Shown here piece by piece: positions 11,748-29,692 of a DNA stretch of 64,000 nt. This DNA comes from a virus (taxonomy: Duplodnaviria; Heunggongvirae; Uroviricota; Caudoviricetes; Crassvirales). Both the position numbers and the translations under genes were made by a program. Below the pieces are notes generated by a model that ran no database searches, was not told where the DNA came from, and saw only the letters and a list, made by a program, of their open reading frames with translations. The stretch lies in IMG/VR virus record IMGVR_UViG_3300023112_000001. One strand, 5' to 3'. The stretch's first letter is position 1. Every line of letters starts with the position of its first letter.

Positions 11748-11799
11748 ATATTTTACTTTTCAATAAAGATAAGTAAAATTATTGATATACACAAATTTT

Positions 11800-12626: not shown

Positions 12627-12627
12627 T

Positions 12628-12867: not shown

Positions 12868-13621
12868 TTATATTAAACCCATTATTTATTAAATCCTCTA
12901 CTATAGAATTATTTATATTTATTTTATATGGAGCTTTTATCTCTTTCCCATTAAAAACAAAATATAAATTATGACTATTCCCAATCATATTTTTAAATAT
13001 ATAAGGTTTAAGTTGCACCATATTATAGAATACATCAGATTCAATATATATATCAGAAATAAATTTAGTTACATTAAAATTTTCCGCTTCAGTTATCATA
13101 GATACAGATGCCGAACCTCTGTCACTATTATAATTAACTTTAACTAAATATACTCTATTTAAAAATAACTTTGGGATTAATTCTTTATATTGTTTGCCAA
13201 ATAAATAAAATTCATAAGACCCAGTTTCATCCTCAAAAGATAATTTAGCGTATTTATTTCCACTAACTTTAGCGGTCATATGTTTTATTTGTGTTAAATC
13301 TCCAATAAATTTTAAGTTTTTATTATTTTCATTTAATAAAAAAATATCTTTTAAATTAGTATTACAAATTTTGCTTTTGATTAATTGATATTTAGATAAT
13401 TTATTATATGAAATACATAAACCTAAAACCTCTCTTTCTTTCGATAGTAATTCGTTTACATCTATTTTTGATTTTAATTTTAATTCTAAGTTAGAATCTT
13501 CTTCAGCTCCAAATAAAGATAATTGATTTCTATCATTTTTTTTATATTTGCTATAAAGACCATCGGCATTGTCTAATAATGTTTGCCTATAAATTAAAAT
13601 ATCTTCAGCTTCTTTATACAT
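12857..13621 (-). CDS. hypothetical protein (254 aa).
   Basis: ORF only. Confidence 0.45.
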   Translation of the reverse strand: MYKEAEDILIYRQTLLDNADGLYSKYKKNDRNQLSLFGAEEDSNLELKLKSKIDVNELLSKEREVLGLCISYNKLSKYQLIKSKICNTNLKDIFLLNENNKNLKFIGDLTQIKHMTAKVSGNKYAKLSFEDETGSYEFYLFGKQYKELIPKLFLNRVYLVKVNYNSDRGSASVSMITEAENFNVTKFISDIYIESDVFYNMVQLKPYIFKNMIGNSHNLYFVFNGKEIKAPYKININNSIVEDLINNGFNIIAK

Positions 13622-13717: not shown

Positions 13718-15460
13718 TTATATTCCGCAGGTTCCGCCTTTGCCACTTATCGAGCAAACGTCATGAAATTCTTCTTTAAACTCTTTCCCTTCATGTTCTA
13801 AGGCTTCTTTATACGAGACTCTTGTTAATGGTTGACCACCTCTACTTCCATCAGGATAACAGGTAAACCCTCTTAACCTATGAGCGTACTTTAATAATGT
13901 TTTAGCAAATTTATTTACCTTTGTTTCATTATTAAGTTCCGTTCCCCAAGGTGGTAAATTAATTGTACTCGATATACTCATATCAACATAATCTTGAATA
14001 TCAGCTTGAAATTTAATTCTTTTCTCAAAATTATTTGCTAAATCTAAAGCAGTCTCTATTTTATCAGGATCTATATTATACTTCTCTACAAGTATTTTCG
14101 TAGTTCCATCAATAACATATTGATAATGCCAAGAATCACCATTTTTAAGATATCTGCGCTTATAAGCTGCTGCAAATAAAGGCTCTCCAGAAGTTGAAGT
14201 TCCTGCTAAAATTCCAATTGTACCAGTTGGCGCCAATGCTCTAAACGCTGCTGGTATATTAATGCCTAGCTTATTAGCTAACTCTATAGCTCCTGTTTCG
14301 CTATTAGTCTTATACACTTCTAGCCAATTCTGTAACTCATTCGTTACGGTATAATCATAACCTCTAGTAAGAAGCCATTCATGAATACCCATTAAGCCTA
14401 ATCCAAGCCTTCTGTTTTGCTCTCTAACCTCTTCTATTTTCTTATATGGTAATTGAGCCTTTAATGTACCGCATAGTAAAAATCTACTAGCTAAATAGCA
14501 TATTCTTTGGAATTCTTCAATTGATTCAATTCTTGACATATTCACAGAACCTAAATTACATACATCAGAATCATCTTCAGAAGTAACCTCAGTACACGCG
14601 TTTCTTAATGTCTCATTAACCTTTTCAAAGAAATTAAAGCTAAATCCAGGTTCTCCTGATTTCATAGCTTGACGACAATTTTCAATAAATGTCATTGGAA
14701 TATATTTAAACTCCAATTCTTTACCAGATTGAAATCTTCTTTTTATATCATCTATCGGTAAATCATAAACTGTTTCCAGAAATTTATTATCATAATTCAC
14801 ACTGATATTAGTCATATCTAAAGGAGCTGGATAATTGAAATCCTTTTCTTTTAATTGACCTATAGTAAGATTTTTTCCATTATCATCATAGGCACCACTG
14901 ATAGGCATATTATACCAATCTTTAGAGTGCATATATTCTCCAATATCTCCATGTCTCCAATTTAATGATGCGTATATAGCACTTCTTCTAGAACCTCCCT
15001 GCATGACATTACGACCAATTTCATTGATCATATACATTTTAGGTATTGGTCCAGAAGCTAATCCGCCAGTTTTTTTAATTATAGATCCCTTAGATCTGTA
15101 TATAGAGTAATCATTTCCTATTCCTCCGCCAGTCATAAGACAAGATTCCGCCTTCCAACTTAAATTAGCCCAATCTTCTCTAGAATCTTCCTCAGATTTT
15201 AATAGAAAGCAATTATTATAAAATTTATTTTTCCTATTAGCGTAATAAAGATATCTACCACCTGCAATAAATTTCATCTCCGAATGATACCTTATTAACT
15301 CATCAACCTCCTCTTTAGGTAAAATATCTCCACATACATTTTGCATTAATTTTGTAGATAATTTCTCCCATGTTTCGCAACCCTTATGGGCATATTTATT
15401 TTCAAAAATATCTTTTGCAAAATCTGTTCTAAAAACATCAACCTTGTTGTTTTTATTCAT
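13718..15460 (-). CDS. ribonucleotide reductase catalytic subunit (probably class II, B12-dependent type).
   Basis: RNR active-site-like motifs RNACTEV (compare SNLCTEI) and CNLGSVNMS (compare class II CNLGS(I/L)NL); C-terminal Cys pair CSISGKGGTCGI; 580 aa. Confidence 0.6.
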   Translation of the reverse strand: MNKNNKVDVFRTDFAKDIFENKYAHKGCETWEKLSTKLMQNVCGDILPKEEVDELIRYHSEMKFIAGGRYLYYANRKNKFYNNCFLLKSEEDSREDWANLSWKAESCLMTGGGIGNDYSIYRSKGSIIKKTGGLASGPIPKMYMINEIGRNVMQGGSRRSAIYASLNWRHGDIGEYMHSKDWYNMPISGAYDDNGKNLTIGQLKEKDFNYPAPLDMTNISVNYDNKFLETVYDLPIDDIKRRFQSGKELEFKYIPMTFIENCRQAMKSGEPGFSFNFFEKVNETLRNACTEVTSEDDSDVCNLGSVNMSRIESIEEFQRICYLASRFLLCGTLKAQLPYKKIEEVREQNRRLGLGLMGIHEWLLTRGYDYTVTNELQNWLEVYKTNSETGAIELANKLGINIPAAFRALAPTGTIGILAGTSTSGEPLFAAAYKRRYLKNGDSWHYQYVIDGTTKILVEKYNIDPDKIETALDLANNFEKRIKFQADIQDYVDMSISSTINLPPWGTELNNETKVNKFAKTLLKYAHRLRGFTCYPDGSRGGQPLTRVSYKEALEHEGKEFKEEFHDVCSISGKGGTCGI

Positions 15461-16009: not shown

Positions 16010-17026
16010 TTAATAAGGTCTTGTTAACTTAATAACACCTTTATTTTCATACTCCTCTCTAGTAACGTCATAAATTCCTGTTTCTTTATGAAACTTATAA
16101 TCTTCTAAATAATCAAGAATTCCTTTTCTTTGCTGACCTCTACTGTCTTTATAACCCTCAACATACATTGATACAGCTTCTTCATCTAACTCATACACTA
16201 AAGGAACTTCAGGTCTTTCTCTTGAAATATAAAGAAATTGAAATGGTAGTATTTTATAATCTCTTAATTCTTTATATCTATTCTTTAAATTCATTATAGC
16301 CAAATAATATAAAGACCCTTGAAGCCAATATTTATATTGAAAATAATTACCTTTCTGTCCAATAAAATTCGCTTTACTTCCAGTTTTTAAATCTATTGGT
16401 CGTAAAGTTTTCTCTTTATGATTAATTTGAAGAAAATCTAATAAGACTTTCATTTCAACACCATTTAATCTAAAGCTTAATGCTAATTGCCTGTACGACT
16501 CTATTTTCAATGGAGGACTTACTATATCCTTGCTATACTCATGCGTATGTAACACATTTAATATATTCTTAGCTAATTTTAAATCAGATTCAGATATAAC
16601 ATCCTTACCATTTTTTCTAGCTATCTCTCTATTGATAATAGTTTCTATTTCATTAGAAGTAACCTTTTTTAATCTTAAGTCATCTTTTTTAACTCCAGTC
16701 CATAATTTTAATTCATCAGAAATAACTAATCTACCTTCATTTGCTATCTCTAACTTATTTCTTTTGATTAATTCATCAACCAATAATTTGCTATGACCAC
16801 TTAATTCTGTATGCGGATAAACATATACGTCTGGCTCTTTATCTTCTGTAATAATTTTATCAATATATGATCCATAATCCATATATGTAGAATTAAATTC
16901 AGGTAATCCATCTCTTATAACCGTAACATCCCCTTCAGAAATTTTTTTTAATAAACTATTATTTACATTATTTGACTTCCTATAATCTTCTATTAATGAG
17001 CCTTTAATTACTTTTAGAAATTTCAT
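16010..17026 (-). CDS. PD-(D/E)XK nuclease (RecB/Cas4-like family); candidate recombination exonuclease.
   Basis: Motif III-like IDLKTGSK (D-x-K) and QxxxY-like YKYWLQGSLYYLAI typical of RecB-family nucleases. Confidence 0.45.
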   Translation of the reverse strand: MKFLKVIKGSLIEDYRKSNNVNNSLLKKISEGDVTVIRDGLPEFNSTYMDYGSYIDKIITEDKEPDVYVYPHTELSGHSKLLVDELIKRNKLEIANEGRLVISDELKLWTGVKKDDLRLKKVTSNEIETIINREIARKNGKDVISESDLKLAKNILNVLHTHEYSKDIVSPPLKIESYRQLALSFRLNGVEMKVLLDFLQINHKEKTLRPIDLKTGSKANFIGQKGNYFQYKYWLQGSLYYLAIMNLKNRYKELRDYKILPFQFLYISRERPEVPLVYELDEEAVSMYVEGYKDSRGQQRKGILDYLEDYKFHKETGIYDVTREEYENKGVIKLTRPY

Positions 17027-17855: not shown

Positions 17856-18810
17856 GCGCTATTCTAGAATTAACAGTCATGCCACCACCTTGTTGCATAT
17901 ATCTGAAATGCGCAAAATTTAACATATCCTTTTCAGAATACTTAGGTTTATTTTCTTTAGCATATATTTCTGCTGCTTTTTTAGTTGAAAAAGCTTTGCT
18001 AGTATAGGATAAAGTCCTACTTATAGCTGGGAAATTACCAATATCAAAATCTTTATCTGAAACATACCAATAATTATCCCCTTTAAACATATTAACCCCA
18101 TCTTCGGTAACAAATAAAATCTTTTTTGATTCTATGTATTTTAAAGCTAATTTTTTTGTAGAGAAATACATAAAACTTTTTTCACTTCCATTATATTTGT
18201 ACATATAATTATGACTATCATAACCATATAGCTTATTTTCACTTATTTGTACAGCACATGATTTATCCCCTTCATATATATCTACACCATCTTCAGTTAC
18301 AAATAGAGGTTTTTTATATGCTTTAATTATACTCAATTTAGCTCCATATACTCTACAGTTTGTATTTCTTCTTACTTTTACTCTTATACCGTAGTCACAT
18401 AATTCAAAAGAGTCTATAATATTATTTTTATTATGACCAATATCTATACTATCTCCAACTGTAAATACTTCTCCATCAGATAGTCTTTTTATTGAATATA
18501 TTGAATAAAGATCACTTTCTAATATATCTTCTGTTGTATAGCCTGAAGTTATTGCTTTTCCATTTATATTTCTACACCAACAACCTATATTTATATTGCT
18601 ACCAAAATTTGTAAATAAATCTTTTAAGTCAGAGTTTTGTTTAAAACTTAATATCTCATAATCCTTCTCTTCAACTTTCTCCCAAAATTCTGGAAAATTT
18701 GGAGCTTCATCATGCGTGGCTTTGGTTCCTTTCCCATCGCAAATATCGCCGACCTCCCATTGTTTCCCTGATCCTGCAGGATATCGTTTTACGCATTTAT
18801 ATTTGATCAT
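17812..18810 (-). CDS. hypothetical protein with an internal tandem repeat (332 aa).
   Basis: Repeated segments KPLFVTEDGVDIYEGDKS and KILFVTEDGVNMFKGDNY. Confidence 0.45.
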   Translation of the reverse strand: MIKYKCVKRYPAGSGKQWEVGDICDGKGTKATHDEAPNFPEFWEKVEEKDYEILSFKQNSDLKDLFTNFGSNINIGCWCRNINGKAITSGYTTEDILESDLYSIYSIKRLSDGEVFTVGDSIDIGHNKNNIIDSFELCDYGIRVKVRRNTNCRVYGAKLSIIKAYKKPLFVTEDGVDIYEGDKSCAVQISENKLYGYDSHNYMYKYNGSEKSFMYFSTKKLALKYIESKKILFVTEDGVNMFKGDNYWYVSDKDFDIGNFPAISRTLSYTSKAFSTKKAAEIYAKENKPKYSEKDMLNFAHFRYMQQGGGMTVNSRIALDFKNWRQKQNDRT

Positions 18811-19232
18811 TTTATTATTCCTCCGTTTTTATCAATTTTATCTTCTGTTAAATATTCTTCAATTTTAGTTACGTCAATAACAAACGACATTGTCATCCCG
18901 CCTTTAGGATTTTGAAATGGCTCATTTTTTTGTACTAAAAATGGAGTTATAACTTCTTCGTACAGTTCAAAATTATCCTCCCTATCTAATGCAATACAAT
19001 GAGGTTTGTCACACATCAATCTTTTAGAAACAACTAATTCTTCAAATACTACTCTAGGGTTATGACTCATATTAGATATACCTCTAACAGCAAATAGTCC
19101 ACAAGAGCCTAGTGGAGAATTTGAAGCTATTATGTAAGAATATTCACAAGGTTGTATAATATCAAAAATACTTGGCTCACTTTTATGTTTTTTATTTATG
19201 ACTACTGGCTTTTTACCATTTAATAATTTCAT
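18807..19232 (-). CDS. hypothetical protein (141 aa).
   Basis: ORF only; dUTPase and dCTP-deaminase motifs were looked for and not found. Confidence 0.4.
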   Translation of the reverse strand: MKLLNGKKPVVINKKHKSEPSIFDIIQPCEYSYIIASNSPLGSCGLFAVRGISNMSHNPRVVFEELVVSKRLMCDKPHCIALDREDNFELYEEVITPFLVQKNEPFQNPKGGMTMSFVIDVTKIEEYLTEDKIDKNGGIIK

Positions 19233-19887
19233 TATTTAAATTTTTAGTTATTTTATCAATTTTTTTAAAGCTAAAGTCCCACCTATTTCCTTTATAACTT
19301 AATTCTAATGGATGTTCAGCTTCAATAATATAATTATTGTCGCTAATATGCTTTTTATATTTTTTAATATAATTACCCCATAAGCAATAAACAATCCCGG
19401 GATTATTTTCAGATAAAGTTTCTAATAAATATTTAATAAATACATCCCATTGTTTTACATGAGATTTACTAGTTCCAGCTTCAATTGTTAGAGATGAGTT
19501 TAATAATAAAACTCCTTGTTTAGCCCAAGACTCTAGCGTTGTATCAAAATTAAGATCTAATCCATTATAATAATCTTCCTCAACATTCTTTTTTATGCTC
19601 ATCAAAGATGGGCTTAATAGAGGAGATTCTAATGAATTTCCAAAAGCTAACCCATTTGCTTTTATGCTTAAAGGTGGGCAATGACCAATAATTACAACTT
19701 TTAAATCTCTATACTTTGTTAATCTAAAAGCTTTAAATACATCTTTTTGTTTTGGATATATTGCAGCTTTTTTTTTATAAAGCTCTTGTAAATATTCAAT
19801 TAAATTTTTAAAATAATTTGAAGCCAGTACAGGGCGCAAAACCCCATACCAGTCTCCAAATATTTTTCTTGCTACTTTTTCATTCAT
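19213..19887 (-). CDS. uracil-DNA glycosylase family-1 homologue with a remodelled catalytic motif (GQDPY replaced by GHCPP).
   Basis: Family-1 UDG motifs VVIIGHCPPLS...NGLAFG (compare ILGQDPYHGP..GLCFSV), QGVLLLNSSLTIEAGTSKSH (compare GVLLLNxVLTVRAxxAxSH) and EAEHPLELSY (compare HPSPLS). The water-activating Asp is Cys and the thymine-excluding Tyr is Pro. Confidence 0.7.
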   Translation of the reverse strand: MNEKVARKIFGDWYGVLRPVLASNYFKNLIEYLQELYKKKAAIYPKQKDVFKAFRLTKYRDLKVVIIGHCPPLSIKANGLAFGNSLESPLLSPSLMSIKKNVEEDYYNGLDLNFDTTLESWAKQGVLLLNSSLTIEAGTSKSHVKQWDVFIKYLLETLSENNPGIVYCLWGNYIKKYKKHISDNNYIIEAEHPLELSYKGNRWDFSFKKIDKITKNLNNEIIKW

Positions 19888-21426
19888 TTAAATTAATGAT
19901 TTAATAGGATAATCCCATTTTTTTAAAGAATCTTCTTTAACTTCTAAAGCACCAATTCTATCATCTTTTTCTGCATGTTCTTTCATCATACTTTTCCTAA
20001 AGTCAGAGTATGAGGTTAAATAATCACTAAGCTCTTCAGAATAGATATCTTTTAAAATTCCTTTTAAATCAATATCTACCTCTGTCTTAATAAACTGTTT
20101 TTGATATTTTTCAGCATATCTACATATAGCGTTAACTATAAAAAGCCAATTAATTACTTTATCAGAATTAAATGTAGAAGTATGTACTCTAAATTCAGCC
20201 GTACCTCTTTTATTGAAAAACAAAGGTATTAAATTACACCAAAAATAACGGTAGTTAACATACCATTTGTGATCAAAACCATTATCACTAGGATGAGGCA
20301 TTCCCATATAATACTTACTGCTTTGCTTGCCTCTCATTCTTCTTAAAAAATTATTGGCATTTTCCTCCTCCTCCTCATCCATTACAACTGGAGTATCTAT
20401 ATCAGTTTTACCATAAATATAGAAATTAAAAAGCTTTGACAAGTCACCATCCATTTTTTTATTAAACTCAACTTTTGGTAACGGCTTACAATAGTCTTTT
20501 CCAGTATTTTTAAACTTTGATGTTTCTTTAAAATACTCAGGAAACATTTTATACATCTCATCTTGAATCTTATATAATACTTTAAAGATAGATATCCCAT
20601 ATTCTGGTGTTTTTGCTATATTCCCAATATGAATATGTAAAGATCCATCTACATTTCTCAAACAGTATTTATTAAGTAATTCACAAGATTGTTTTATTGT
20701 GTGAAGACCTCTTTCTCCCTGTAATGGGATAGTTGTATATTCAAATGGATTAACCATTCCGTGTCTTAAACTACCATCTTTAAGTGGTATTAATCCTGTT
20801 TTATAACAATGTCTAACAGGTATTTGACCATTATAAGTTTCAAATTCTACTCCAAATGTAGTTTCTCCTAATTCTGTATGAAACTTTTTAGTTACATCTT
20901 TATTAAAAGAAAAATGCTTTTCATAGTATTCCTTAAATGATTGAAATTGATGTTCAAATGAATAATTTAATCTAAATGGATATCTTGATCCAATAAATTT
21001 TTCTTTTACTTTAACGCCACTAGCCTTTACAATTGACTTATGAATAAATTTTCCAGAATTTATTACTTCAAGAAAGTTTTTAGTAAGAATATCTTCAGAT
21101 ATTGCTAAAGAAAATTCACCATACCTATCGGTTGTAACTTCTATGTTTTTAATACTATCTCTAGTAAATTTACCGTATACTGGATCTTCGTTTTCATCAA
21201 ACCCAATTATACCGTTATATAGATCTGTTCCAGACTTTAACACCCAATGTTTGGTTTCATTGTCAAAATCAATTAATCCATTATTTATTCTATGCCATTT
21301 ACCATCAGACATTTTAAAGCACTGAACACCCATCTTATAAAATTTACCAGAAATTTTTCTACATTCTGATCTTATAGCTTCTTCACCATTATATGTCTCT
21401 ATTACTTCGTTAATCTTTTTTGCCAT
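19888..21426 (-). CDS. amidoligase (GCS2/YbdK-like carboxylate-amine ligase) with a large N-terminal extension.
   Basis: G-x-E-x-E motif FGVEFETY and H-x-H motif GSLHIHIGN, characteristic of the gamma-glutamylcysteine-synthetase-2 / Amidoligase_2 family; 512 aa. Confidence 0.5.
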   Translation of the reverse strand: MAKKINEVIETYNGEEAIRSECRKISGKFYKMGVQCFKMSDGKWHRINNGLIDFDNETKHWVLKSGTDLYNGIIGFDENEDPVYGKFTRDSIKNIEVTTDRYGEFSLAISEDILTKNFLEVINSGKFIHKSIVKASGVKVKEKFIGSRYPFRLNYSFEHQFQSFKEYYEKHFSFNKDVTKKFHTELGETTFGVEFETYNGQIPVRHCYKTGLIPLKDGSLRHGMVNPFEYTTIPLQGERGLHTIKQSCELLNKYCLRNVDGSLHIHIGNIAKTPEYGISIFKVLYKIQDEMYKMFPEYFKETSKFKNTGKDYCKPLPKVEFNKKMDGDLSKLFNFYIYGKTDIDTPVVMDEEEEENANNFLRRMRGKQSSKYYMGMPHPSDNGFDHKWYVNYRYFWCNLIPLFFNKRGTAEFRVHTSTFNSDKVINWLFIVNAICRYAEKYQKQFIKTEVDIDLKGILKDIYSEELSDYLTSYSDFRKSMMKEHAEKDDRIGALEVKEDSLKKWDYPIKSLI

Positions 21427-21430
21427 TTTT

Positions 21431-23437
21431 TTAAGCTATATTAAGTTTTGAATTAAGAATTGTGTCTTTTAAATCATCTACTAACGCTTGAACTGTTTTT
21501 GATGATTCTAACCATGACTCACTTAAAGTGTCGTCTTCTATTTTATTTAACAATTTTATAACTTGGTCAAAGTCTTTAGAGACTCCATCGTTATAAATTT
21601 CCTCATACCAAGCTTTTTGCTCTTCAGTTAACTCAAGAGAACTGCTTGCGTTTTCATTTTTTTTCTTTTCTTTTGCCTTTTCACCAGATTCAATCCATTC
21701 TTTCATAGTAGACTTTACCCAAACTTCACTTTTATCTATGTAATGAAGAATGTCGTCATATGTTTTTCCATAATGATCTAAAGCATCAAAATATTTAATT
21801 ACAGTGGTTTCGCCATATTCTTCTTTTTTGTAAAAGTCTCCTTCTTCAAAAAATATTTCATTTTTAGTGAGAACTTTAGCTGCTGCCTCTAATGCTATTT
21901 TATTTTGCTTATTATCATCGCTTTCTTTATGATCTGGAGAATTAAAAGGCACTACCTCAATATGAGTTAATCTTCCATTATAAAAAGTATATTTTTTATT
22001 ACTAAATAATGGAGCGAATGATCCTGTATAAGAGTTCCCAGATTTATTATAAGCCCCCATACTAGTATATAAGTACTCATGCTTAATGTTAGTAACTGGA
22101 TATATAGCATATTCCATCAATACAGACAATCTTTTTGCATCTGTATCTGAATTAGATAAACATCCACCTGGAATTAATTTACCTTTCTTAACTCTTTTAA
22201 GAGCTTTTGATGCTTTTTGATAAGAGGCATGATCTGGCAACATTATCCCATCTGTAAAATAATAAAGCTTGGCGTCATCGTCAGTTTTTTTTGAATAATA
22301 TCCAATTTCATCAAGATAAATTGCACCATGAACTAATTTTTTAGCACTAGCTTTATTTTCTTTCATGTAATATCTTCCAGAAGCATATTGAACTATTTTT
22401 TCTGTTAAATTTAAAGATTCAGCTTCCTGAGCAAATACATGTAATGGTGTTCCAGGATTATTTTTAATACTTTGACTTATAATAGGTAATTGCAATTGAG
22501 TATCTTTAGGCTTATTCCTATTATTAAATCCTCCTACATTTACGGAATTAGGAAAGTAATCCTCTTCATTATAACCACCCCAACTACTATTATTTGTAAA
22601 AGATTTTACTTGAGCAGCATTGCTTCTATCTATGGGAATTTCATCTACGATCACTCCATTTTCTATTACTAAAACAGTATTTTCTACAACTGGATCTATG
22701 TTAGGACTCTCGTCTTCAGCAATCATCCACAATGGAGCTTCTAAAGAACTAAGCCATAATCCTTTTTTATTATTATATGAAAATAAAGGTCTTTCCTCCG
22801 TTACTTCAGAAGTTGCATAATTATACTTTCTTGAGGCGCCTTTAAATACATATCCTAATCCATCTTCTTTATTTTCCCAAATAATAGATGCAGCACCTCT
22901 ATATTCCTTTAAAACATCATAATTTTTTTGTTTTATTAAAATATAAGATAAAATTTGAGTGTCATTTGGGGAGTATTCTTTTCCATCATAAATAAATTTA
23001 TCTGGAACGTCATATTTTTTCTTTAATTCCTCAGAATTATACAATGTTCCATTATGTATAGCGCCGCCTATTATATTATCCTCTTCCGAATAACAATAAG
23101 GCTGAGTATATTGAATGAATTTGCCCCCACTACTAGCCTTCCTAGAATGACCTAGAACTATATTATGTTTTGGAGATGGTACAACATATTCTTCTATTAA
23201 GTCAGAATAACCTTTATTTACAATATGTTTTACGTTATTACCTGATAAAAATCCAGATGCATCTCCACCTCTAGTATCATTAATAATACCTAGCAAATTG
23301 AATTTATCTTTGCTGAAACCACGAGAATTTTTTCCCATAAAAGCCCATATTCCACAATTAAGGGTGGAGTAACTCCCACCCTTAATGTAATTAATCAAAC
23401 TACTTATAAACAATGTTATTAATACTATATTGTGCAT
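21431..23437 (-). CDS. class II (Ntn-type) glutamine amidotransferase-domain protein with a 27-aa hydrophobic propeptide before the catalytic Cys and a roughly 430-aa C-terminal domain of unknown function.
   Basis: NCGIWAFMGK...RGGDASGF matches the N-terminus of GAT-II enzymes (compare MCGIxG...RGPDxSG of AsnB/PurF). No SGGxDS PP-loop follows, so it is not an asparagine synthetase. No Met directly precedes the Cys, implying propeptide removal. Confidence 0.65.
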   Translation of the reverse strand: MHNIVLITLFISSLINYIKGGSYSTLNCGIWAFMGKNSRGFSKDKFNLLGIINDTRGGDASGFLSGNNVKHIVNKGYSDLIEEYVVPSPKHNIVLGHSRKASSGGKFIQYTQPYCYSEEDNIIGGAIHNGTLYNSEELKKKYDVPDKFIYDGKEYSPNDTQILSYILIKQKNYDVLKEYRGAASIIWENKEDGLGYVFKGASRKYNYATSEVTEERPLFSYNNKKGLWLSSLEAPLWMIAEDESPNIDPVVENTVLVIENGVIVDEIPIDRSNAAQVKSFTNNSSWGGYNEEDYFPNSVNVGGFNNRNKPKDTQLQLPIISQSIKNNPGTPLHVFAQEAESLNLTEKIVQYASGRYYMKENKASAKKLVHGAIYLDEIGYYSKKTDDDAKLYYFTDGIMLPDHASYQKASKALKRVKKGKLIPGGCLSNSDTDAKRLSVLMEYAIYPVTNIKHEYLYTSMGAYNKSGNSYTGSFAPLFSNKKYTFYNGRLTHIEVVPFNSPDHKESDDNKQNKIALEAAAKVLTKNEIFFEEGDFYKKEEYGETTVIKYFDALDHYGKTYDDILHYIDKSEVWVKSTMKEWIESGEKAKEKKKNENASSSLELTEEQKAWYEEIYNDGVSKDFDQVIKLLNKIEDDTLSESWLESSKTVQALVDDLKDTILNSKLNIA

Positions 23438-24237
23438 TTAACTTTCTCCTCTATTTTTAATTTGTTTTTTACTTCGTAAAGATTGCTTCTAATATCAGAA
23501 TCACCTACATTATCAAAAGATAATATTTTTTCTATATTACCTTCAATATTAAGCCAATCAAACATTTTAATTACCTGATCATAAACCCAATCTAAATACT
23601 CATCATTAGCGAAATAGCTTCCTAGAGCTCTAACCTCAACTCCATATGATTTAATTCTTATAGATCCATAAGACCCATAATTATTCCTTCTAAACTCATC
23701 ATATTTGATTTCATCGCTAGGCAACACTACAAATAAATCATACGCTCGACCTATTGCTTTGGCAATTTCACCCATTCCGAATTTTGATTCATCAAATTTA
23801 TATCCTAAATGAAGATGAAATCCAGCTACACGCTTGTTTGTCTCTAATTTTGGAGTTTCTATTTCACGTAATTGAGAATCCCAAGAATTAAAAAATCCAG
23901 AACATCCAAATTCTTTAGCATCTTCTAAATCTAAAAATCTATTTTTAAATTCAACTGAATCCTCACAAACAATTTCACATCCTTTAATTTCTGCTATTGT
24001 ATTAATTATATTTTTCAGAAACTTCATAGAATGAATAAACTCTTCTTTATTTTTTGATGGAGGGATATTCCCCTCAACCGTTAAGTTATCTTTATGGATC
24101 AAAAATCCTTTTGTTCCAGCTTCTTCTGGTGCAAATTTTGTTCCAGATGTAATTAACGAGGATGGCATATATGTACCATCTTTTTTCTTTCTAATAAAAA
24201 ATTCAGGATCTGAACCTATTGTTTGTAATTTTAGCAT
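23425..24237 (-). CDS. amidoligase (GCS2/YbdK-like carboxylate-amine ligase), short form.
   Basis: IGSDPEFF (G-x-[DE]-x-E-F) near the N-terminus and AGFHLHLGY (H-x-H); 270 aa. Confidence 0.5.
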   Translation of the reverse strand: MLKLQTIGSDPEFFIRKKKDGTYMPSSLITSGTKFAPEEAGTKGFLIHKDNLTVEGNIPPSKNKEEFIHSMKFLKNIINTIAEIKGCEIVCEDSVEFKNRFLDLEDAKEFGCSGFFNSWDSQLREIETPKLETNKRVAGFHLHLGYKFDESKFGMGEIAKAIGRAYDLFVVLPSDEIKYDEFRRNNYGSYGSIRIKSYGVEVRALGSYFANDEYLDWVYDQVIKMFDWLNIEGNIEKILSFDNVGDSDIRSNLYEVKNKLKIEEKVKCTI

Positions 24238-24238
24238 T

Positions 24239-25087
24239 TTATAATTTTTTAAATCTAATTATTTTATAATATTTGTTTTGAAAATCGTCATTTAAAACTT
24301 TAATCAAATTGTTTTTTATTGTTCCTTCGTATACCTTACCTATACTTAAATAATAAGCATTCTTATTGTCTACACACTTAAATCTTTCAATTTTAGAATT
24401 AAATAGACTCTTTAGCTCTTTTTTTAATTCAACCCAATTTTTATTAGAATATAATCTTTGAAGGCTGTCAATCTTATTTTCTTTAATTGAGTTTATAGAT
24501 GATGTTGAATTTAATATACTGAAAAGCTCTATTTTTAAGCTATTTTTAATGACATTAATATCATACTCTGCGACACAATAACATGAGTTAAATGGTTGAT
24601 GATAACTACGATAAGTTACCTGTGGTGTAATTATATGCGCTGCATGAAATAATTTCCAAAATGAGATAGAAGGATATTGTTTTTTTAATTCGCAATACGT
24701 TTTTACAGTTTCAAGACAATCTTCTGTTCCAAGATACCTTACTATCTGATTGATGAATAATTTATTTCCAGGAGATAATCCCTTTGTATTAACCTTTACC
24801 GCTTTTGCTGACGAAAGTTTTGGATAAAAACCTCCAGGAAGATCAAAGTTAATGTCTTTTACAATTGAAATATTTTTACATATTTCCTCTTGTATGCCAG
24901 ATATAAATGTATTTAATGTACTAATTTTCACCCTTCTATTTAAATGAAAATAATATTCATCTACTCTTTTAACAATAGTTTGACACGTTCCATAATATAG
25001 CGGTTTATACCCTTTAGGTATTTTTGCAAACAAATAATTAGATTCAGTCATTTTCCAATACCTCTTCATTAATTTTTGTAAATTCAT
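24239..25087 (-). CDS. hypothetical protein (282 aa) inside the amidoligase operon.
   Basis: ORF; translationally coupled to its neighbours. Confidence 0.45.
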   Translation of the reverse strand: MNLQKLMKRYWKMTESNYLFAKIPKGYKPLYYGTCQTIVKRVDEYYFHLNRRVKISTLNTFISGIQEEICKNISIVKDINFDLPGGFYPKLSSAKAVKVNTKGLSPGNKLFINQIVRYLGTEDCLETVKTYCELKKQYPSISFWKLFHAAHIITPQVTYRSYHQPFNSCYCVAEYDINVIKNSLKIELFSILNSTSSINSIKENKIDSLQRLYSNKNWVELKKELKSLFNSKIERFKCVDNKNAYYLSIGKVYEGTIKNNLIKVLNDDFQNKYYKIIRFKKL

Positions 25088-25448
25088 TCCAGTCTCCAGA
25101 TGCTATTTTAGCCAATCTGCTAAAATCTCTAGCATCATTTTCCATATAATACATCCACGCCTTACCGTATTCAGTATCTATTTCTTTTCTATTATAAAAA
25201 GTAGGATAACCTTCTAGGGAATCTAAGTTCTTTAACGTTTCATTGTCATTTACTTGAAATATTTCTAACACTATTTCATTTTCGCCATTAAGCGTAACCG
25301 CTGGAAAACCACCTAAACTGTACATAGTATATTCTGGTGTAGTTCTATGTAATCCAACATACGCTTGATTTCTTAATAAATAGTTGTTATAATGATTTTT
25401 TCTCAATGTTCCGTATACTGCTACCAAAACAGGTGGTTGTAATTCCAT
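25044..25448 (-). CDS. gamma-glutamyl cyclotransferase (GGCT / AIG2-like).
   Basis: VAVYGTLRKNHYNNYLL and GGFPAV match the YGTL...N and G-[YF]-P signatures of the GGCT/AIG2 fold; 134 aa. Confidence 0.7.
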   Translation of the reverse strand: MELQPPVLVAVYGTLRKNHYNNYLLRNQAYVGLHRTTPEYTMYSLGGFPAVTLNGENEIVLEIFQVNDNETLKNLDSLEGYPTFYNRKEIDTEYGKAWMYYMENDARDFSRLAKIASGDWNEFTKINEEVLEND

Positions 25449-25452
25449 AATT

Positions 25453-26259
25453 TTAAATTTTATTGTTAATTATTTCAGTAATTTTTTCTTTATAAGCCTG
25501 AACTCCTTGTTCTCCAAGACTTGGAGCTGAGTTTACTTCAACTACGATAAATTCAGGATTATCTTTTTTAGACGATTGTATTCTTAAATCTACGCAACCA
25601 ATATCTAAGCCTACAGCGTCGATAGCTTTACAGCATTCTTCTACCACTAAATCCCAATTAGATGGCTTATCGAATAATTCATGATTTTCATTTACCCAAT
25701 TACAATTAGAGCTATTAAAGAACCATCTATCTTCAGCATCTTCTTTACGAAGTTTTCTCCAAGTCATAAAACATTCGTCTTTAGTACAATGGAGGCGATA
25801 TTCTTTAGCGTAATTGTGAAATTTTTCAAAATAATAACCATCCAATTGAGCTTGAGTGGTGTTATTAATAAATTCTTCTAGTTGCTCTTCGCTATCTATC
25901 TTAATCATTCCTTTTCCCTTAAAGCCAAATACTCTTTTAGCTAATATGGGATAATGATCAACAAATTTTACACCATAGTCATCATGATTTGTCCACCAAG
26001 CAGATTGCTTTACTTCGCTTTTATCAAAACATGCTTTCATCATAAGTTTACTGCGACTGTTTTGGATAGATTCTACAGTATTAACTTCAATGATAGTGTA
26101 CTTTCCATATGATTTAGGGAAAGCCACTTCTGTTTCAGTTACTGATCCTAGTCTAACCAATGATCTAAGTCTAAAAGGACCTATACCATTATTTCTATGC
26201 CTTAAAGCAGAGCAAGAGTGATTTTTTGATCTCACTCTTGCATATCTTTCTCTTACCAT
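25453..26259 (-). CDS. ATP-grasp ligase (RimK / glutathione-synthetase-like).
   Basis: C-terminal FIVVEVNSAPSLG (compare the E-x-N motif of ATP-grasp enzymes); size and layout consistent with RimK-like peptide ligases. Confidence 0.6.
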   Translation of the reverse strand: MVRERYARVRSKNHSCSALRHRNNGIGPFRLRSLVRLGSVTETEVAFPKSYGKYTIIEVNTVESIQNSRSKLMMKACFDKSEVKQSAWWTNHDDYGVKFVDHYPILAKRVFGFKGKGMIKIDSEEQLEEFINNTTQAQLDGYYFEKFHNYAKEYRLHCTKDECFMTWRKLRKEDAEDRWFFNSSNCNWVNENHELFDKPSNWDLVVEECCKAIDAVGLDIGCVDLRIQSSKKDNPEFIVVEVNSAPSLGEQGVQAYKEKITEIINNKI

Positions 26260-26262
26260 AAT

Positions 26263-26964
26263 TTAAGATAAAATTGATTTTTTATTTTCTAACAAATAAC
26301 GTATTGCTGCTAAAGCAAACGGATTATACGTTTCTTCAGGATGAGCTTGTTCCGCTACGATTGGTAGCTCAGGATGAGCAATTAATTCTACATGTCTACC
26401 ATGCTTTTTATCTGATCTACCCACCACAACTAATGGAGTATTATTCATAATAGTATCTTCTCTTAAAACTTGATGATGAATACTATTTGTTCCATAAACT
26501 GGTCTTACGAAATTAAGATTCCTTGCTAAAGCTTTTCTTACACTTAAGTCTATATCTACCTCATGAACTAGCTTGCTTCTATCATAGCTCTCGTTATGAA
26601 CATGATTCACATGTTGTCTCATGGATGCTCCGAAATATACTCCTAAGCTCTGAAACCCTCTGCAAATACCATATATTGGCGTTTTAGCTTCAATATATTT
26701 TGGTAAATGATTAATATCAAAATATTCTCTAAATGGGCAAGGTTTTCCAGTAAAATAACCAGGAGCCTGATTATACCTCATTGTATCTACATCTGGACCA
26801 CCTGGTATTAATAATAAATCTAAATCAGTCCTTATTGGTGAATGTGGATTCAATATTATAACTTCTGCATCAAATGATTCAATAAATTGCATATAAGGAG
26901 CAGTTACACCAAAACTATTATCTCCTGTTTTCCATGCTGGAATTCCTATTTTATATTTTTTCAT
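26263..26964 (-). CDS. class I glutamine amidotransferase / peptidase C26 (gamma-glutamyl hydrolase, PuuD-like).
   Basis: Catalytic Cys motif PIYGICRGFQSLG (G-x-C-x-G-x-Q); His-Pro-Glu motifs ELIAHPEL and EQAHPEE. Confidence 0.7.
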   Translation of the reverse strand: MKKYKIGIPAWKTGDNSFGVTAPYMQFIESFDAEVIILNPHSPIRTDLDLLLIPGGPDVDTMRYNQAPGYFTGKPCPFREYFDINHLPKYIEAKTPIYGICRGFQSLGVYFGASMRQHVNHVHNESYDRSKLVHEVDIDLSVRKALARNLNFVRPVYGTNSIHHQVLREDTIMNNTPLVVVGRSDKKHGRHVELIAHPELPIVAEQAHPEETYNPFALAAIRYLLENKKSILS

Positions 26965-26975
26965 ATTTTTTTTTA

Positions 26976-27368
26976 TTAATCTTTTTTAAATATCCAAGTT
27001 CTTATTTTGTTTCCTGTATTTGCATTTACTGACTCTTCAGATGAATGCTGACATATTCTATCTAATATTTTATTAAACTCTTCTCCACCATGAATAGTAT
27101 TTGTAAATACTAGAAATGATTTTCTAGAATGCTTACCATTATTACATAGTTGATTGAATCCTTCTTTAAAGATTTCGCATAACTCTTCTTCCGTTAAGGT
27201 TTCTTTCCATCTCTGAACTTTTCTATTTTCAGGATTTCCCATCAATACAGAAGTTCCACAAGTTACATATTGAGCTCTAAATATATGTTTTTTTCTTCCA
27301 AATGTAATTGTAGATCTTTGTCCTCCATCATAAAGATCTTGACGATTCCACTGCATTTCTATGTTCAT
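26976..27368 (-). CDS. hypothetical protein (130 aa) between the two GATase1 genes.
   Basis: ORF only. Confidence 0.4.
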   Translation of the reverse strand: MNIEMQWNRQDLYDGGQRSTITFGRKKHIFRAQYVTCGTSVLMGNPENRKVQRWKETLTEEELCEIFKEGFNQLCNNGKHSRKSFLVFTNTIHGGEEFNKILDRICQHSSEESVNANTGNKIRTWIFKKD

Positions 27369-27967
27369 AATAAATATTTTTTTATTAATTTTTCACAATA
27401 TTCTTTTGTTTTTTTTGGGCAATTAGGAAATTCAGGATGACCTTGAATTGCTAAACAGTTAGTATCTGGGTAATATACTATTTCAGGTTCAAAAGGAATC
27501 TTTATATCACCTAATCCAGTCGTATATTCACTAGATCTATTTACAGAGCTCCACGCAATTAACTTGTGATTAGGAACATGAAAGGGATTCATCATTTGAT
27601 GATGAGTAGAAGTTATCTCAAGCTCTTGAACCCCATCAGTAATAGAATGATTGCCTGATATAGCATGATTAGTTACATTTTGTATAACTTTCCCATTTTG
27701 CTGCATAGCAGTAAGAAATTGCGATCCATAACATATTCCTAACATAGGGATGTTATTTTCCAAAGCATGGTTATATGCTTCAATTTCTTTTAGCGACCTA
27801 TTTTTGTCTATATAAGACCTTACGTTAGCCTCTCCATATATTTCTGGGTCTACATCTGGACCTCCAGTAAATATAACTAATCCTTTAGCCTCTTCTATTT
27901 TATCTAATAGATCTTGGTTAATCCAATTTTTATAAGAATCTCTTCCTAGTGTAAGTATTCTATGCAT
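27365..27967 (-). CDS. class I glutamine amidotransferase / peptidase C26 (second paralogue).
   Basis: PMLGICYGSQFL (G-x-C-x-G-x-Q), STHHQ and IQGHPEF. Confidence 0.7.
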   Translation of the reverse strand: MHRILTLGRDSYKNWINQDLLDKIEEAKGLVIFTGGPDVDPEIYGEANVRSYIDKNRSLKEIEAYNHALENNIPMLGICYGSQFLTAMQQNGKVIQNVTNHAISGNHSITDGVQELEITSTHHQMMNPFHVPNHKLIAWSSVNRSSEYTTGLGDIKIPFEPEIVYYPDTNCLAIQGHPEFPNCPKKTKEYCEKLIKKYLL

Positions 27968-28669: not shown

Positions 28670-29692
28670 TTATTTTAATATTTCTTTTAATAATTTTTTA
28701 GTTTCTATTTCTTTATATTTTTTATAATAATCAGTTATATCCTTACTGTTAAAATCAAATGTAGTTATAAATTCAAATCCAAAATCTTTTCGATTTCTTT
28801 CAGCAGATTTTATCCCAGCATTATCATGATCATAAAACGTTAGTATTCTATTAGCTTTTGATTTTAATATATCAATTACTTGAGGTTTAAATATATATCC
28901 TTCTCCTTGTGGAGATACTGCATTATAGCCATATTCATATAAAAACATCACATCTTTTGTTGATTTAGTGATTATGATTAAATCAACTACCTCATCAGGT
29001 AACAAGCCCCATCCAGAAAAAGTTCCGTCTAAAAATCCATTTAAAAATTTATTATCTCTTGACTCCCTAAATGGCTGATATATCTTATAATTAATAATAC
29101 CATCTTTATACTCTTTATAAGCATAAGCATAATTATCAGCTTTAAATATCTTATTATTCATCCAATAATATTTAATAGGAACTACATTAAATATATTAAG
29201 AGTATTTAAAGATATACCAAATTGATTCCAAAATCTTAAATCATTAATATTCCATTTTCTAACAGATATATCTAAATTTAACTTTGTAGATGAAAATTTT
29301 TTTCTAGAATCTTTATTTAATCTATATTCTACTGGTTTTAATTGCTTAAAGTCAATATTATTTATTATAAATTTATTTCCAAGATTAAAGTCGATTATAA
29401 TTCTCTCTAAAGCGTCAGTATATTTACTTAGATTAAATAAATGTTTTACAAAATTAACAACATCACCGCTTGCTCCTCTGTGATCTTTAAAAAACAAACT
29501 TCCATTTACTTTTTTGCTTGGAAATATTCCAAAAGATGGGTTTTTATCTTTACTTAATGGAGAATTAAAAGGCTTTCCCACTATAAATTCACCTATATAA
29601 TAGCGATATACTTCATAGTCAGAAACCTCGTCCATTAATTTTTCATAAGATGGATAGACTTTATCATATTTACTATCATTTGGATTAAACAT
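28670..29692 (-). CDS. DnaG-like DNA primase (degenerate zinc-ribbon plus Toprim domain).
   Basis: KNPSFGIF...FKDHRGASGDVVNFV resembles the DnaG zinc-binding domain but lacks the Cys ligands; Toprim motif ILTFYDHDNAG (D-x-D-x-x-G). Confidence 0.6.
   Translation of the reverse strand: MFNPNDSKYDKVYPSYEKLMDEVSDYEVYRYYIGEFIVGKPFNSPLSKDKNPSFGIFPSKKVNGSLFFKDHRGASGDVVNFVKHLFNLSKYTDALERIIIDFNLGNKFIINNIDFKQLKPVEYRLNKDSRKKFSSTKLNLDISVRKWNINDLRFWNQFGISLNTLNIFNVVPIKYYWMNNKIFKADNYAYAYKEYKDGIINYKIYQPFRESRDNKFLNGFLDGTFSGWGLLPDEVVDLIIITKSTKDVMFLYEYGYNAVSPQGEGYIFKPQVIDILKSKANRILTFYDHDNAGIKSAERNRKDFGFEFITTFDFNSKDITDYYKKYKEIETKKLLKEILK

Follow-up and report, generated by a model that had tools for sequence, protein, structure and literature searches.

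The gene at positions 19213-19887 of the 64-kb stretch of phage DNA analysed here (the window) encodes a homologue of family-1 uracil-DNA glycosylases (UDG) that lacks family-1 motif A. The motif GQDPY, with its catalytic Asp and C5-gating Tyr, reads GHCPP in every alignment. We estimate at roughly 50% the probability that this protein is a folded, selected UDG pseudoenzyme, which flips and binds a base, hydrolyses very slowly or not at all and has a role independent of catalysis.

Gene and family membership

The ORF lies on the minus strand, starts with ATG and encodes 224 aa, with boundaries exactly as first noted. The ATG directly follows the TAA that ends the amidoligase gene upstream (19888-21426). 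At its 3' end the ORF overlaps the next one (18807-19232) by 20 nt. Pfam, phmmer, AlphaFold2 and Foldseek agree with the original prediction of a family-1 UDG homologue. PF03167 was the sole Pfam match (E 4.5e-11; 43.4 bits vs a cut-off of 24.3), and phmmer against the PDB matched Coxiella UNG 3tr7 (E 1.4e-32), E. coli UNG (6e-30) and human UNG (3e-23). The score for the NCBIfam equivalog NF003592 passed by a bare margin (162.3 vs a cut-off of 162), and that for TIGR00628 (141.4) was below the cut-off of 185.75. The AlphaFold2 model had a mean pLDDT of 91.1 and a pTM of 0.90, and its top PDB matches in Foldseek were all family-1 UNGs (TM 0.85-0.87). By fold and sequence similarity the window protein is a family-1 UDG homologue, a single domain equal in length to the family-1 UNGs and 31-36% identical to them. 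It keeps Phe77, Asn123, His187, Leu191, the Ser-Pro loop and the GVLLLN core (E. coli numbering), but the GQDPY loop has become GHCPP, with no Asp, no Tyr and His for Gln, and Ala168 has become Ile. No canonical UDG that would make this ORF a spare copy was found in the window: tblastn with E. coli Ung matched this ORF only. The same protein sequence was also found in public assemblies, on a contig of 5.9 kb (P0001). The features of the gene are as follows.

19213..19887, minus strand: UDG-family ORF, family-1 fold with altered water-activating loop (ORF call, Pfam, PDB phmmer, AlphaFold2, Foldseek, NCBIfam)
19297..19314, minus strand: HPLELS leucine-intercalation loop (motif B), in which His192 corresponds to His187 and Leu196 to Leu191, both kept (alignment)
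19459..19515, minus strand: GVLLLNSSLTIEAGTSKSH block with Asn130, corresponding to E. coli Asn123, which reads uracil N3/O4, kept (alignment)
19642..19644, minus strand: Phe82, within GLAFG, corresponding to E. coli Phe77, which stacks on the flipped base, kept (alignment)
19672..19686, minus strand: codons G68-H69-C70-P71-P72, aligned on E. coli G62-Q63-D64-P65-Y66 (DNA read and alignments)

Catalytic loop and pyrimidine pocket

The segment V-V-I-I-G-H-C-P-P aligned on V-V-I-L-G-Q-D-P-Y in HMMER pairwise alignments to three solved UNGs, in MAFFT with E. coli Ung and in hmmalign. In E. coli numbering the substitutions are Q63H, D64C and Y66P, which correspond to Q144, D145 and Y147 of human UNG; the residue numbering of the E. 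coli Ung reference sequence is self-consistent, and the PDB alignments agree with it. The predicted replacement of Asp by Cys and Tyr by Pro at the equivalents of D145 and Y147 was thus confirmed, and a misalignment concealing an intact Asp and Tyr was rejected because four independent alignments agree on GHCPP. The other frames of 19672-19686 read VIAHL* and SLPTF. D-P-Y is found in neither, and therefore the change is not a compensated frameshift; a sequencing artefact was also rejected, as the identical protein was assembled elsewhere.

The three family-1 blocks named in the original prediction, GLAFG (Phe77), GVLLLNSSLTIEAGTSKSH (Asn123) and HPLELS (His187, Leu191), are all present. The uracil-recognition residues lie in LLLN130S and GLAF82G. 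Motif B, HPSPLS, reads HPLELS and retains the His, the Leu and the final Ser, with Leu-Glu in place of the middle Ser-Pro. Among the DNA-backbone loops, SPS is kept (Pro87, Ser88), the Gly-Ser loop has changed to Gly-Asn, and Ala168 to Ile. Of the 38 columns with 85% conservation or more, the window protein deviates in only two (Y to P, and A174I), and outside Q63, D64 and Y66 it departs from the consensus of the canonical group only at E. coli positions 125, 128, 145, 168, 183 and 207, all mildly. Its mean distance to outgroups (0.578) is the lowest in its clade, and accelerated evolution of the window protein was rejected on this ground.

A UDG pseudoenzyme is the most probable reading. Cys has taken the place of the water-activating Asp, and Pro that of the Tyr that shuts C5 substituents out of the pocket, while the Ser-Pro loop, HPLELS, Phe77, Asn123 and His187, which would suffice for DNA binding, backbone pinching, Leu insertion and the holding of a flipped pyrimidine, are kept. 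Uracil, and probably also thymine-sized pyrimidines, would be flipped and bound, and the glycosidic bond would be hydrolysed very slowly or not at all. The protein would be retained for a role in the replication/recombination module that does not need catalysis, for example as a binder of DNA, uracil or abasic sites or as a partner of replication proteins. We infer loss of hydrolysis, retained base flipping and such a catalysis-independent role.

Engineered human UNG mutants (Y147A; N204D; D145N/H268N) are altered at the same positions as the window protein, although these are laboratory changes to Ala or Asn and the window combination is Cys, Pro and His. Human UNG Y147A excises thymine, in line with the prediction that loss of the Tyr opens the pocket to this base, and D145N/H268N was used as a 'dead' control in the same work (PMC11162499). 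D145N/H268N is inactive and binds uracil-DNA like the wild type (PMC4756853). The original suggestion that the protein flips and binds a base without excising it fits these mutants, as well as a pyrimidine pocket that is otherwise intact and DNA-binding loops that are largely so. The idea that it was designed to do so is less well founded, because the Cys/Pro pair is a singleton and the replacements in relatives are diverse.

The earlier claim that loss of the Asp removes glycosylase activity was overstated. UDG families 2, 3 and 5 are glycosylases without the family-1 Asp, and therefore the window protein may have residual or altered activity. In family-1 enzymes, however, Asp to Asn lowers the rate by about three or more orders of magnitude. 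A still-active glycosylase of changed specificity is an unlikely explanation. Its open pocket would admit thymine or 5-substituted uracils, His187 and backbone stabilisation of the leaving group would support cleavage, much as in the UDG families that have no Asp, or Cys70 would covalently capture C1', and the targets would be host DNA or particular lesions. The thymine excision by Y147A speaks for it, as does the retention of His187, Asn123, Phe77 and most of the DNA-binding loops, which other degenerate lineages have lost, and substitutions of E. coli Tyr66 are reported to reduce activity without abolishing it (PMC2853124). A thymine glycosylase would nevertheless attack the AT-rich genome of the phage itself unless this were protected, and no protective pathway was found. 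The variant is, moreover, a singleton whose relatives mostly drift to clearly inactive sites. Two features of the window protein count against the pseudoenzyme reading. Phe77, Asn123 and His187 are kept while many degenerate relatives have lost His187, so that the pocket could still serve chemistry beyond binding, and the catalytic loop has gained a His-Cys pair that might itself provide a novel form of catalysis.

Genomic neighbourhood and the amidoligase cassette

The window comes from a crAss-like phage: its MCP is 36% identical to that of phi14:2, and its terminase and portal match PHROGs. The gene order is primase, amidoligase cassette, UDG, PD-(D/E)XK and RNR. By this order and the crAss-type head genes, the window UDG is the replication-module orthologue of crAss-like phages. 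The neighbouring genes are listed below.

13718..15460, minus strand: ribonucleotide reductase, followed in relatives by dUTPase and PolA, both not found in the window (profile match and synteny)
16010..17026, minus strand: PD-(D/E)XK exonuclease, the replication-module gene after UDG in crAss-like phages (profile match and synteny)
19888..21426, minus strand: Amidoligase_2 (glutamine-synthetase-like), last cassette gene, its stop abutting the UDG start codon (profile match)
21431..23437, minus strand: class-II (Ntn) glutamine amidotransferase, 668 aa (GATase_6, E 6e-8)
23425..24237, minus strand: phiEco32-type COOH-NH2 ligase (profile match)
24239..25087, minus strand: cassette ORF of 282 aa with no family assigned, homologue in L006 (comparison)
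25044..25448, minus strand: gamma-glutamyl cyclotransferase, GGACT (E 2.5e-22)
25453..26259, minus strand: ATP-grasp ligase, RimK/CPSase-like (profile match)
26263..26964, minus strand: Peptidase C26 / class-I glutamine amidotransferase, copy a (profile match)
27365..27967, minus strand: Peptidase C26 / class-I glutamine amidotransferase, copy b, cassette start (profile match)
28670..29692, minus strand: DnaG-type primase (Toprim), replication-module gene upstream of the cassette (profile match and synteny)

No matches to dUTPase, ThyA or PolA were found in the 64-kb window. A 346-aa ORF at the slot of phi14:2 ThyA was considered as a ThyA and rejected, being unrelated to the phi14:2 protein. 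The PolA that relatives possess is thus not seen in the window, which counts against a role as a replication partner. For the phage amidoligase/amidotransferase cassette, first described in 2009, the proposed targets are the cell wall or metabolites rather than DNA (Iyer 2009, cited in PMC10580990). Our literature search found no paper linking phi14:2, amidoligase and glycosylase.

UDG and cassette occur together and apart. UDG lies between primase and PD-(D/E)XK/PolA in about 70 cassette-free crAss-like loci, and the same gene order is seen in phi14:2 and cr108_1, which both bear the cassette. Leptolyngbya phage Lbo-JY46 and about 30 crAss-like loci have the whole cassette and no UDG. An HMM search of 33 UDG-less amidoligase loci found no UDG, even at E 1, and the Lbo-JY46 protein downstream of amidoligase was rejected as a hidden UDG since it had no HMM match. 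UDG is sporadic in crAss-like phages (PMC7886860). Because the cassette occurs without UDG, UDG occurs without the cassette, and most close cassette-adjacent relatives keep the Asp and Tyr, adjacency alone shows no role in base modification.

The state of the UDG gene nevertheless varies with the cassette. Non-canonical UDGs made up 18 of 28 cassette-adjacent clusters vs 3 of 24 cassette-free clusters (Fisher p 2e-4), and 3 of 5 vs 2 of 22 in a second, uniformly sampled set (p 0.03). The cassette adjoined six of the seven degenerate proteins that were looked up individually. About one third of cassette-adjacent UDGs are fully canonical. The slot beside the cassette may therefore hold a canonical UDG, one degenerate in any of many ways, or nothing, and the window is one case of this trend. 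Cassette-adjacent UDGs are far more often degenerate, and therefore a functional connection between the cassette and UDG chemistry stays plausible. A purely structural role of the UDG leaves the link between degeneracy and cassette unexplained, which counts against the pseudoenzyme reading. The original prediction took the operon position as support for base modification. As an argument from position this is weakened by the distribution given above, by the sub-clade of the window, which mostly has D and Y, and by the lack of modification genes among those found in the window; what stands is the more frequent degeneracy beside the cassette.

It is also conceivable, if improbable, that the protein works with the cassette as a reader, shield or transferase of a modified base. 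A pyrimidine in the phage DNA would receive an amino-acid-like group made or added by the cassette enzymes. Having neither C5 gate nor hydrolytic base, the UDG-fold protein would flip this base and shield it by binding, or Cys70 would act in group transfer. The enrichment of degenerate active sites beside the cassette is consistent with this, and so are the translational coupling of the UDG to the last cassette gene and the persistence of the amidoligase-UDG pairing across distant crAss-like phages, very divergent UDG-like proteins included. Pocket positions shift as in base-preference mutants of human UNG (Tyr to Pro, His, Ser or Val; Asn to Asp; PMC11162499). Some thymidine-hypermodification clusters contain amidoligase and glutamine amidotransferase genes, and the known amino-acid:DNA transferases have a glycosylase fold with an active-site Cys (PMC8989533). 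P0150, on a 4-kb contig, is an independent Asp to Cys variant with F, N and H kept. Against such a role, no dUMP hydroxymethylase, 5-hmU DNA kinase, aGPT-Pplase or TET/JBP was found among the scanned ORFs of the 64-kb window, and the cassette-bearing phi14:2 encodes an apparently ordinary ThyA-type thymidylate synthase. The loci with a cassette and no UDG, the canonical third of cassette-adjacent UDGs (among them three of the five lineages in the window's sub-clade whose context was checked), the lack of a common new motif and the cell wall or metabolite role proposed for the cassette also argue against it.

The aGPT-Pplase and amino-acid:DNA transferases carry out group transfer on a flipped 5-substituted uracil via their active-site Cys, and in some cases share a gene cluster with amidoligases and amidotransferases (PMC8989533). 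Their fold is helix-hairpin-helix, whereas the window protein has the UDG alpha/beta fold and no aGPT-Pplase Pfam match. aGPT-Pplase has a conserved Cys-Glu pair, and the Cys of the window protein is a singleton; aGPT-Pplase also needs 5-hmdU and 5-hmU DNA kinase, and neither a kinase nor a 5-hmdU source was found among the scanned ORFs of the 64-kb window. By the definition in PMC8989533, the window protein with its UNG-like fold falls outside this family. A more specific proposal, which we regard as distinctly improbable, is that a UDG fold was recruited as the DNA-facing part of a pyrimidine modification pathway made up of amidoligase, amidotransferase, ATP-grasp and GGACT. It would be the equivalent, in a UDG fold, of the amino-acid:DNA transferases with a helix-hairpin-helix fold. 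The widened pocket would take up a flipped pyrimidine that is 5-substituted or altered in another way, with Cys70, assisted by His69, serving as nucleophile or holding the base. If true, this would explain selection against ordinary uracil excision beside the cassette.

Degenerate relatives and selection

Among the 207 phage and metagenome homologues compared, 169 carry the canonical D/Y/N/H set and the C/P combination was seen only in the window protein; judged by these sequences, the Cys/Pro pair appears unique to the window's lineage. Of its 11 closest relatives, six have an intact G, D and Y (G[MQL]DPY), two (P0005 and P0007) keep D and Y with the G absent, and three are without the Asp. 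The sub-clade members whose context was checked and showed the cassette (P0008-P0012) comprise three canonical lineages and the degenerate P0008 and P0009. On an approximate NJ tree, at least eight independent losses of catalytic residues were counted, and C, E and N variants occur alongside D in the sub-clade of the window. Related proteins have E, N, T, H, Q, R, K, F or M as replacements, with no common new motif. So many differing replacements resemble loss of constraint, not convergence on a new active site.

Degenerate lineages are under relaxed purifying selection. Their dN/dS is 0.25-0.46 vs 0.06-0.16 in canonical lineages, values that were measured on relatives of the window protein, the nearest of which is 57% identical to it. 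This relaxation could mean that the gene is on its way out, UDG activity being dispensable and a first inactivating hit having been followed by neutral drift in the catalytic loop of a still undisrupted ORF. The sporadic occurrence of UDG in crAss-like phages (PMC7886860), the roughly 30 cassette-bearing loci without it and the singleton Cys/Pro state agree with decay. We consider it quite unlikely for the window gene, as the reading frame is unbroken and closely coupled to the adjacent genes, shows no excess divergence, and has changed in two of 38 conserved columns. At least five nucleotide changes (counted by hand with the codon table) fall in three of five adjacent codons, with Phe77, Asn123 and His187 untouched, and dN/dS in degenerate relatives is well under 1, which indicates purifying selection.

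Comparison with known UDGs

The UDGs of cr108_1, DAC15 and PhiCrAss001-type phages occupy the orthologous position in the replication module (primase, UDG, then PD-(D/E)XK and RNR) and are 35-39% identical to the window protein, but unlike it they are canonical (GQDPY and HP). In phi14:2, a cultured crAss-like Cellulophaga phage, the cassette is followed by the UDG g042 as in the window. g042 is also non-canonical and is annotated 'uracil-DNA glycosylase'. It has GKEPY, GVAYG and EDP, so that Asp is changed to Glu, His187 to Asp and Tyr is kept, whereas in the window protein Asp is changed to Cys, Tyr to Pro and His187 is kept.

The pseudoenzyme reading has precedents in function. The poxvirus D4/E4 and herpesvirus UNGs are, like the window protein, viral family-1-type UDGs among replication genes, and the replication role of these proteins is reported to be independent of catalysis (PMC10253040; bioRxiv 10.1101/2023.05.19.541466; bioRxiv 10.1101/2025.03.26.645540). 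Vaccinia D4 is reported to double as a polymerase processivity factor (PMC10253040), and the catalytic residues of MHV68 UNG are reported to be dispensable for its binding to viral replication factors (bioRxiv 10.1101/2023.05.19.541466). In these proteins the catalytic residues are preserved and the partners (A20, polymerase) are defined, whereas for the window protein it is the position in the replication module that is shown.

Implications

Annotation pipelines will call both the window protein and the phi14:2 protein 'uracil-DNA glycosylase' despite the missing residues that define this chemistry. Of the best 150 cluster representatives in our search, about 44% differ from the canonical state at a position for catalysis or recognition, and therefore non-canonical UDG look-alikes seem to form a large, uncharted group. 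These natural variants alter the positions engineered in UNG-based base editors (Tyr147, Asn204 and Asp145), and are a ready-made library for pocket design. As phi14:2 can be cultured, it offers a test system for the chemistry of virion DNA and for an assay of g042. The enrichment of degenerate or deleted UDG genes beside the cassette is a new and testable hint on cassette function, and suggests an involvement of the cassette in the metabolism of uracil, pyrimidines or DNA.

Homology and gene order

The protein encoded at 19213-19887 is a family-1 uracil-DNA glycosylase (UDG) homologue by both fold and sequence, as the original prediction had held. It matches Pfam PF03167 above the gathering cut-off (E 4.5e-11), and phmmer against PDB sequences returned the UNGs of Coxiella (E 1.4e-32), E. 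coli (about 6e-30) and human (about 3e-23), all three spanning essentially the full length. The AlphaFold2 model, made with 17 relatives as input, has a mean pLDDT of 91 and a pTM of 0.90, and its 50 best Foldseek matches in the PDB are all family-1 UNGs (TM 0.80-0.88 over the 50, 0.85-0.87 among the best). An identical copy is encoded on a second public contig. The start codon abuts the stop (TAA) of a 512-codon ORF lying upstream, and 20 nt at the 3' end are shared with the next ORF, so the gene lies in a tightly packed operon.

Genes for terminase, portal and major head protein lie at 54-63 kb on the plus strand of the window, and the head protein shares 34-36% identity with its counterparts in Cellulophaga phage phi14:2 and in crAss-like phages from the human gut. 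The UDG-family ORF has the following neighbours.

Gene order around the UDG-family ORF, all on the minus strand
Upstream, DnaG-type primase
26263-26964 and 27365-27967, two C26/class-I amidotransferases
Upstream, ATP-grasp ligase
Upstream, gamma-glutamyl cyclotransferase
Upstream, ORF without family
Upstream, phiEco32-type COOH-NH2 ligase
Upstream, class-II amidotransferase
19888-21426, Amidoligase_2 protein
19213-19887, UDG-family ORF, ATG start, 224 codons
Downstream, two ORFs without family
Downstream, weak RusA-like ORF
Downstream, PD-(D/E)XK nuclease
13718-15460, ribonucleotide reductase

This order recurs in six metagenomic relatives and in the cultured phi14:2 (g036-g054) and cr108_1, both Crassvirales, Steigviridae, Asinivirinae. 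The two C26/class-I paralogues are divergent and enclose a 130-aa ORF without family; in relatives, the cassette (the amidoligase/amidotransferase genes between primase and UDG slot) contains either one such gene or two. Identity to locus L003 is 78% for the ribonucleotide reductase but just 35-50% for the neighbouring genes, which suggests that the reductase gene was exchanged recently. The window lacks the RNR-dUTPase-PolA block seen in relatives, so no replicative polymerase was identified there. The stretch 10947-13621 (-) holds an HNH/NUMOD homing endonuclease and, near it, a 254-aa ORF whose only resemblance is to the C-terminal OB-fold region of DnaE-type Pol III alpha. An RNA-repair-like module (7037-10363, -) comprises two calcineurin-type metallophosphatases, a polynucleotide kinase and an RNA ligase; the relative L001 has RtcB at a comparable place. 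PspA/IM30 and SPFH/Band-7 homologues (37227-37901 and 40435-41295, both -), which are membrane-stress and scaffold proteins, are unusual for a phage early/replication region. The ORF at 50229-50633 (+) matches DUF1937/DUF4406 and, weakly, nucleoside 2-deoxyribosyltransferase; it may bear on nucleotide-pool editing, because dNMP N-glycosidases use that fold.

Motif A and the remainder of the protein

Three HMMER pairwise alignments with solved UNGs set 'kvviighcppls' opposite 'KVVILGQDPYHG', and GHCPP was placed identically by MAFFT with E. coli Ung and by HMM alignment. For E. coli Ung we used what we take to be the reference sequence; its residue numbering is self-consistent and agrees with the PDB alignments. 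In the window protein Q63 is replaced by His, D64 by Cys and Y66 by Pro (human Q144, D145 and Y147), which puts the predicted Asp and Tyr losses at the expected sites. The other predicted blocks are present, with Phe77 (GLAFG), Asn123 (LLLNS) and both His187 and Leu191 (HPLELS) kept; the Pro-Ser loop (SPS) is kept as well. By our own codon count the change takes five or more nucleotide substitutions, which fall in three of five neighbouring codons. A compensated frameshift was rejected as the source of GHCPP, as the other two frames give nothing like D-P-Y. The Cys/Pro combination is unique among all sequences searched. The window protein falls short of motif A, which defines family-1 UDG, and should not be named uracil-DNA glycosylase. 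It exceeds the cut-off of the NCBIfam UDG equivalog NF003592 by just 0.3 bit, whereas its top PHROG is phrog_12143 ('unknown function', E 8.5e-45) and no UDG family; the two resources would therefore annotate it differently.

The closest non-identical relatives are 50-57% identical. Conservation reaches 85% or more of about 200 homologues in 38 alignment columns, and the window protein differs in two of them: the Tyr is replaced, and Ala168 is Ile. It keeps the consensus of the canonical group, which retains D64, Y66, N123 and H187, at most strongly conserved positions; besides Q63, D64 and Y66 it departs solely at E. coli 125, 128, 145, 168, 183 and 207, always mildly. Backbone-contacting Ser88, lost in many degenerate relatives, is kept, and the mean distance to 14 outgroup UDGs (0.578) is the lowest in its 12-member clade. 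Because the remainder stays near consensus, the change is focused on residues 63-66, and outside the catalytic loop the sequence does not appear to be decaying. Pairwise Nei-Gojobori dN/dS was 0.25-0.46 in three degenerate lineages of relatives, the window protein itself having no close relative, and 0.06-0.16 in the canonical cr108 group. On these values the degenerate copies are still under selection, as functional proteins with relaxed constraint and not pseudogenes. That the window gene is drifting to loss is quite unlikely.

UDG-family genes beside and away from the cassette

The original prediction had taken the position at the end of the amidoligase operon to support a link to base modification. 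Adjacency by itself does not show such a role, since cassette and UDG each occur alone; degeneracy, however, is enriched beside the cassette. A search by UDG similarity gave about 70 IMG/VR loci without a cassette; there a UDG, nearly always canonical, still lies between primase and PolA or PD-(D/E)XK nuclease. In the crAss-like replication/nucleotide module, UDG is known as an accessory gene (PMC7886860). The unrelated Leptolyngbya phage Lbo-JY46 has a complete seven-gene cassette and no UDG. An amidoligase-seeded scan (80 loci, L174-L253), with 10 further loci, gave 90 loci. In 33 of them (e.g. L179, L181, L231 and L239) a threshold as loose as E 1 still yielded no UDG-like ORF. The majority (about 30) belong to crAss-like phages, and there a small ORF and then PD-(D/E)XK come after the cassette; the UDG slot thus has canonical, degenerate and deleted states.

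The other 57 loci have a UDG-family ORF (HMM E <=1e-36 in all but one), which starts about 0-550 nt past the amidoligase stop in 52; the exceptions are L184, L185, L187, L191 and L193, where it is found about 4 kb upstream. Many have non-canonical residues, with states at D64, Y66, F77, N123 and H187 that include EYFNH, NYFNN, EYFNS, HYFNK, EFYNA, EYFYN, EYYND (phi14:2), EYFDH, QYYNE, FSLNE, RVRNF and KEFNV. After clustering at 70% identity, 18 of 28 cassette-adjacent and 3 of 24 cassette-free clusters were non-canonical (Fisher p 2e-4; p 0.012 at 50% identity; both without phylogenetic correction). Since these groups were sampled differently, the test was repeated on a uniformly sampled set, with 3/5 against 2/22 (p 0.03, likewise uncorrected for phylogeny). 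Six of seven degenerate proteins looked up individually from a similarity-ranked list directly follow the cassette. On a neighbour-joining tree the cassette-adjacent genes fall in a few large groups; C, E and N variants stand beside D in the window sub-clade, and at least eight independent changes were counted overall. Canonical cassette-adjacent UDGs occur in that sub-clade (the L001/L007 group, L003 and L006) and in cr108_1.

In the top 150 cluster representatives (50% identity), UDG domains with a change at D64, Y66, N123 or H187 make up about 44%. Tyr to Pro occurs in two besides the window protein. The sole other Asp-to-Cys homologue found, P0150 (L257:1386-2084), is 38% identical and has GQCPY with F/N/H kept; its contig is 4 kb, with no amidoligase within 1.4 kb upstream. 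Among cassette-adjacent UDG-like proteins, Glu at the Asp position accompanies Asn123 to Asp in P0175 and in the ORFs (about 7660-8470) of IMG/VR loci L198, L190 and L192; the latter replacement corresponds to N204D of human UNG, which turns the pocket to cytosine. Four cluster representatives (P0213, P0122, P0226 and P0185) have two or three tandem UDG domains, in one case a canonical GQDPY domain and then a degenerate GQEPP domain; cellular genomes may encode these as fusions of an active UDG with a pseudo-UDG. In phi14:2, g042 (L087:13661-14371; NC_021806.1 27660-28370) directly follows the amidoligase and is annotated 'uracil-DNA glycosylase'. Its motifs GKEPY, GVAYG and EDPIQ have Glu for the catalytic Asp and Asp for His187, and the annotation is probably wrong.

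Discussion

In family-1 UDGs the Asp-to-Asn change by itself slows the enzyme by roughly three orders of magnitude or more. Judged by its residues, the window protein lacks the general base for hydrolysis. The predicted end of glycosylase activity is put too strongly, as UDG families 2, 3 and 5 function without the motif-A Asp. Residual or new chemistry is conceivable, for example via the adjacent His-Cys pair, and a glycosylase of altered specificity, or a covalent trap, seems improbable. Human UNG Y147A excises thymine and N204D cytosine (PMC11162499), and D145N/H268N is inactive with wild-type-like affinity for uracil-DNA (PMC4756853). E. coli Tyr66 substitutions lower activity 7- to 170-fold (PMC2853124). 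From this mutant behaviour and the residues present, the window protein should flip and hold pyrimidines, including thymine-sized ones.

We therefore propose, at a probability of about one half, that the window protein is a UDG pseudoenzyme. It would flip bases and bind DNA, and the replication module would retain it for a role in which catalysis is not required. Poxvirus and herpesvirus UDGs, with their catalysis-independent roles, offer an analogy. The pseudoenzyme reading leaves one observation unaccounted for, the association between cassette and degeneracy, and this sustains the alternative of a cassette-coupled transferase or modified-base reader, which we regard as unlikely. The window has no thymidylate-synthase-like gene, dUTPase, PolA or second UDG, its scanned ORFs include nothing like 5-hmU DNA kinase, aGPT-Pplase or TET/JBP, and phi14:2 carries an apparently ordinary ThyA. 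The window protein itself was rejected as an aGPT-Pplase, because the fold is unlike and no kinase or hydroxymethylase partner was found in the window.

The observation behind the original prediction is confirmed and its interpretation supported in part. Our literature search found no paper on degenerate crAss-like UDG homologues or their link with the amidoligase cassette. The window protein appears to be one case of a loss of UDG chemistry that recurs among crAss-like phages with the cassette. This wider pattern and its occurrence in the cultured phi14:2 raise the interest of the finding, and phi14:2 gives experimental access to it.
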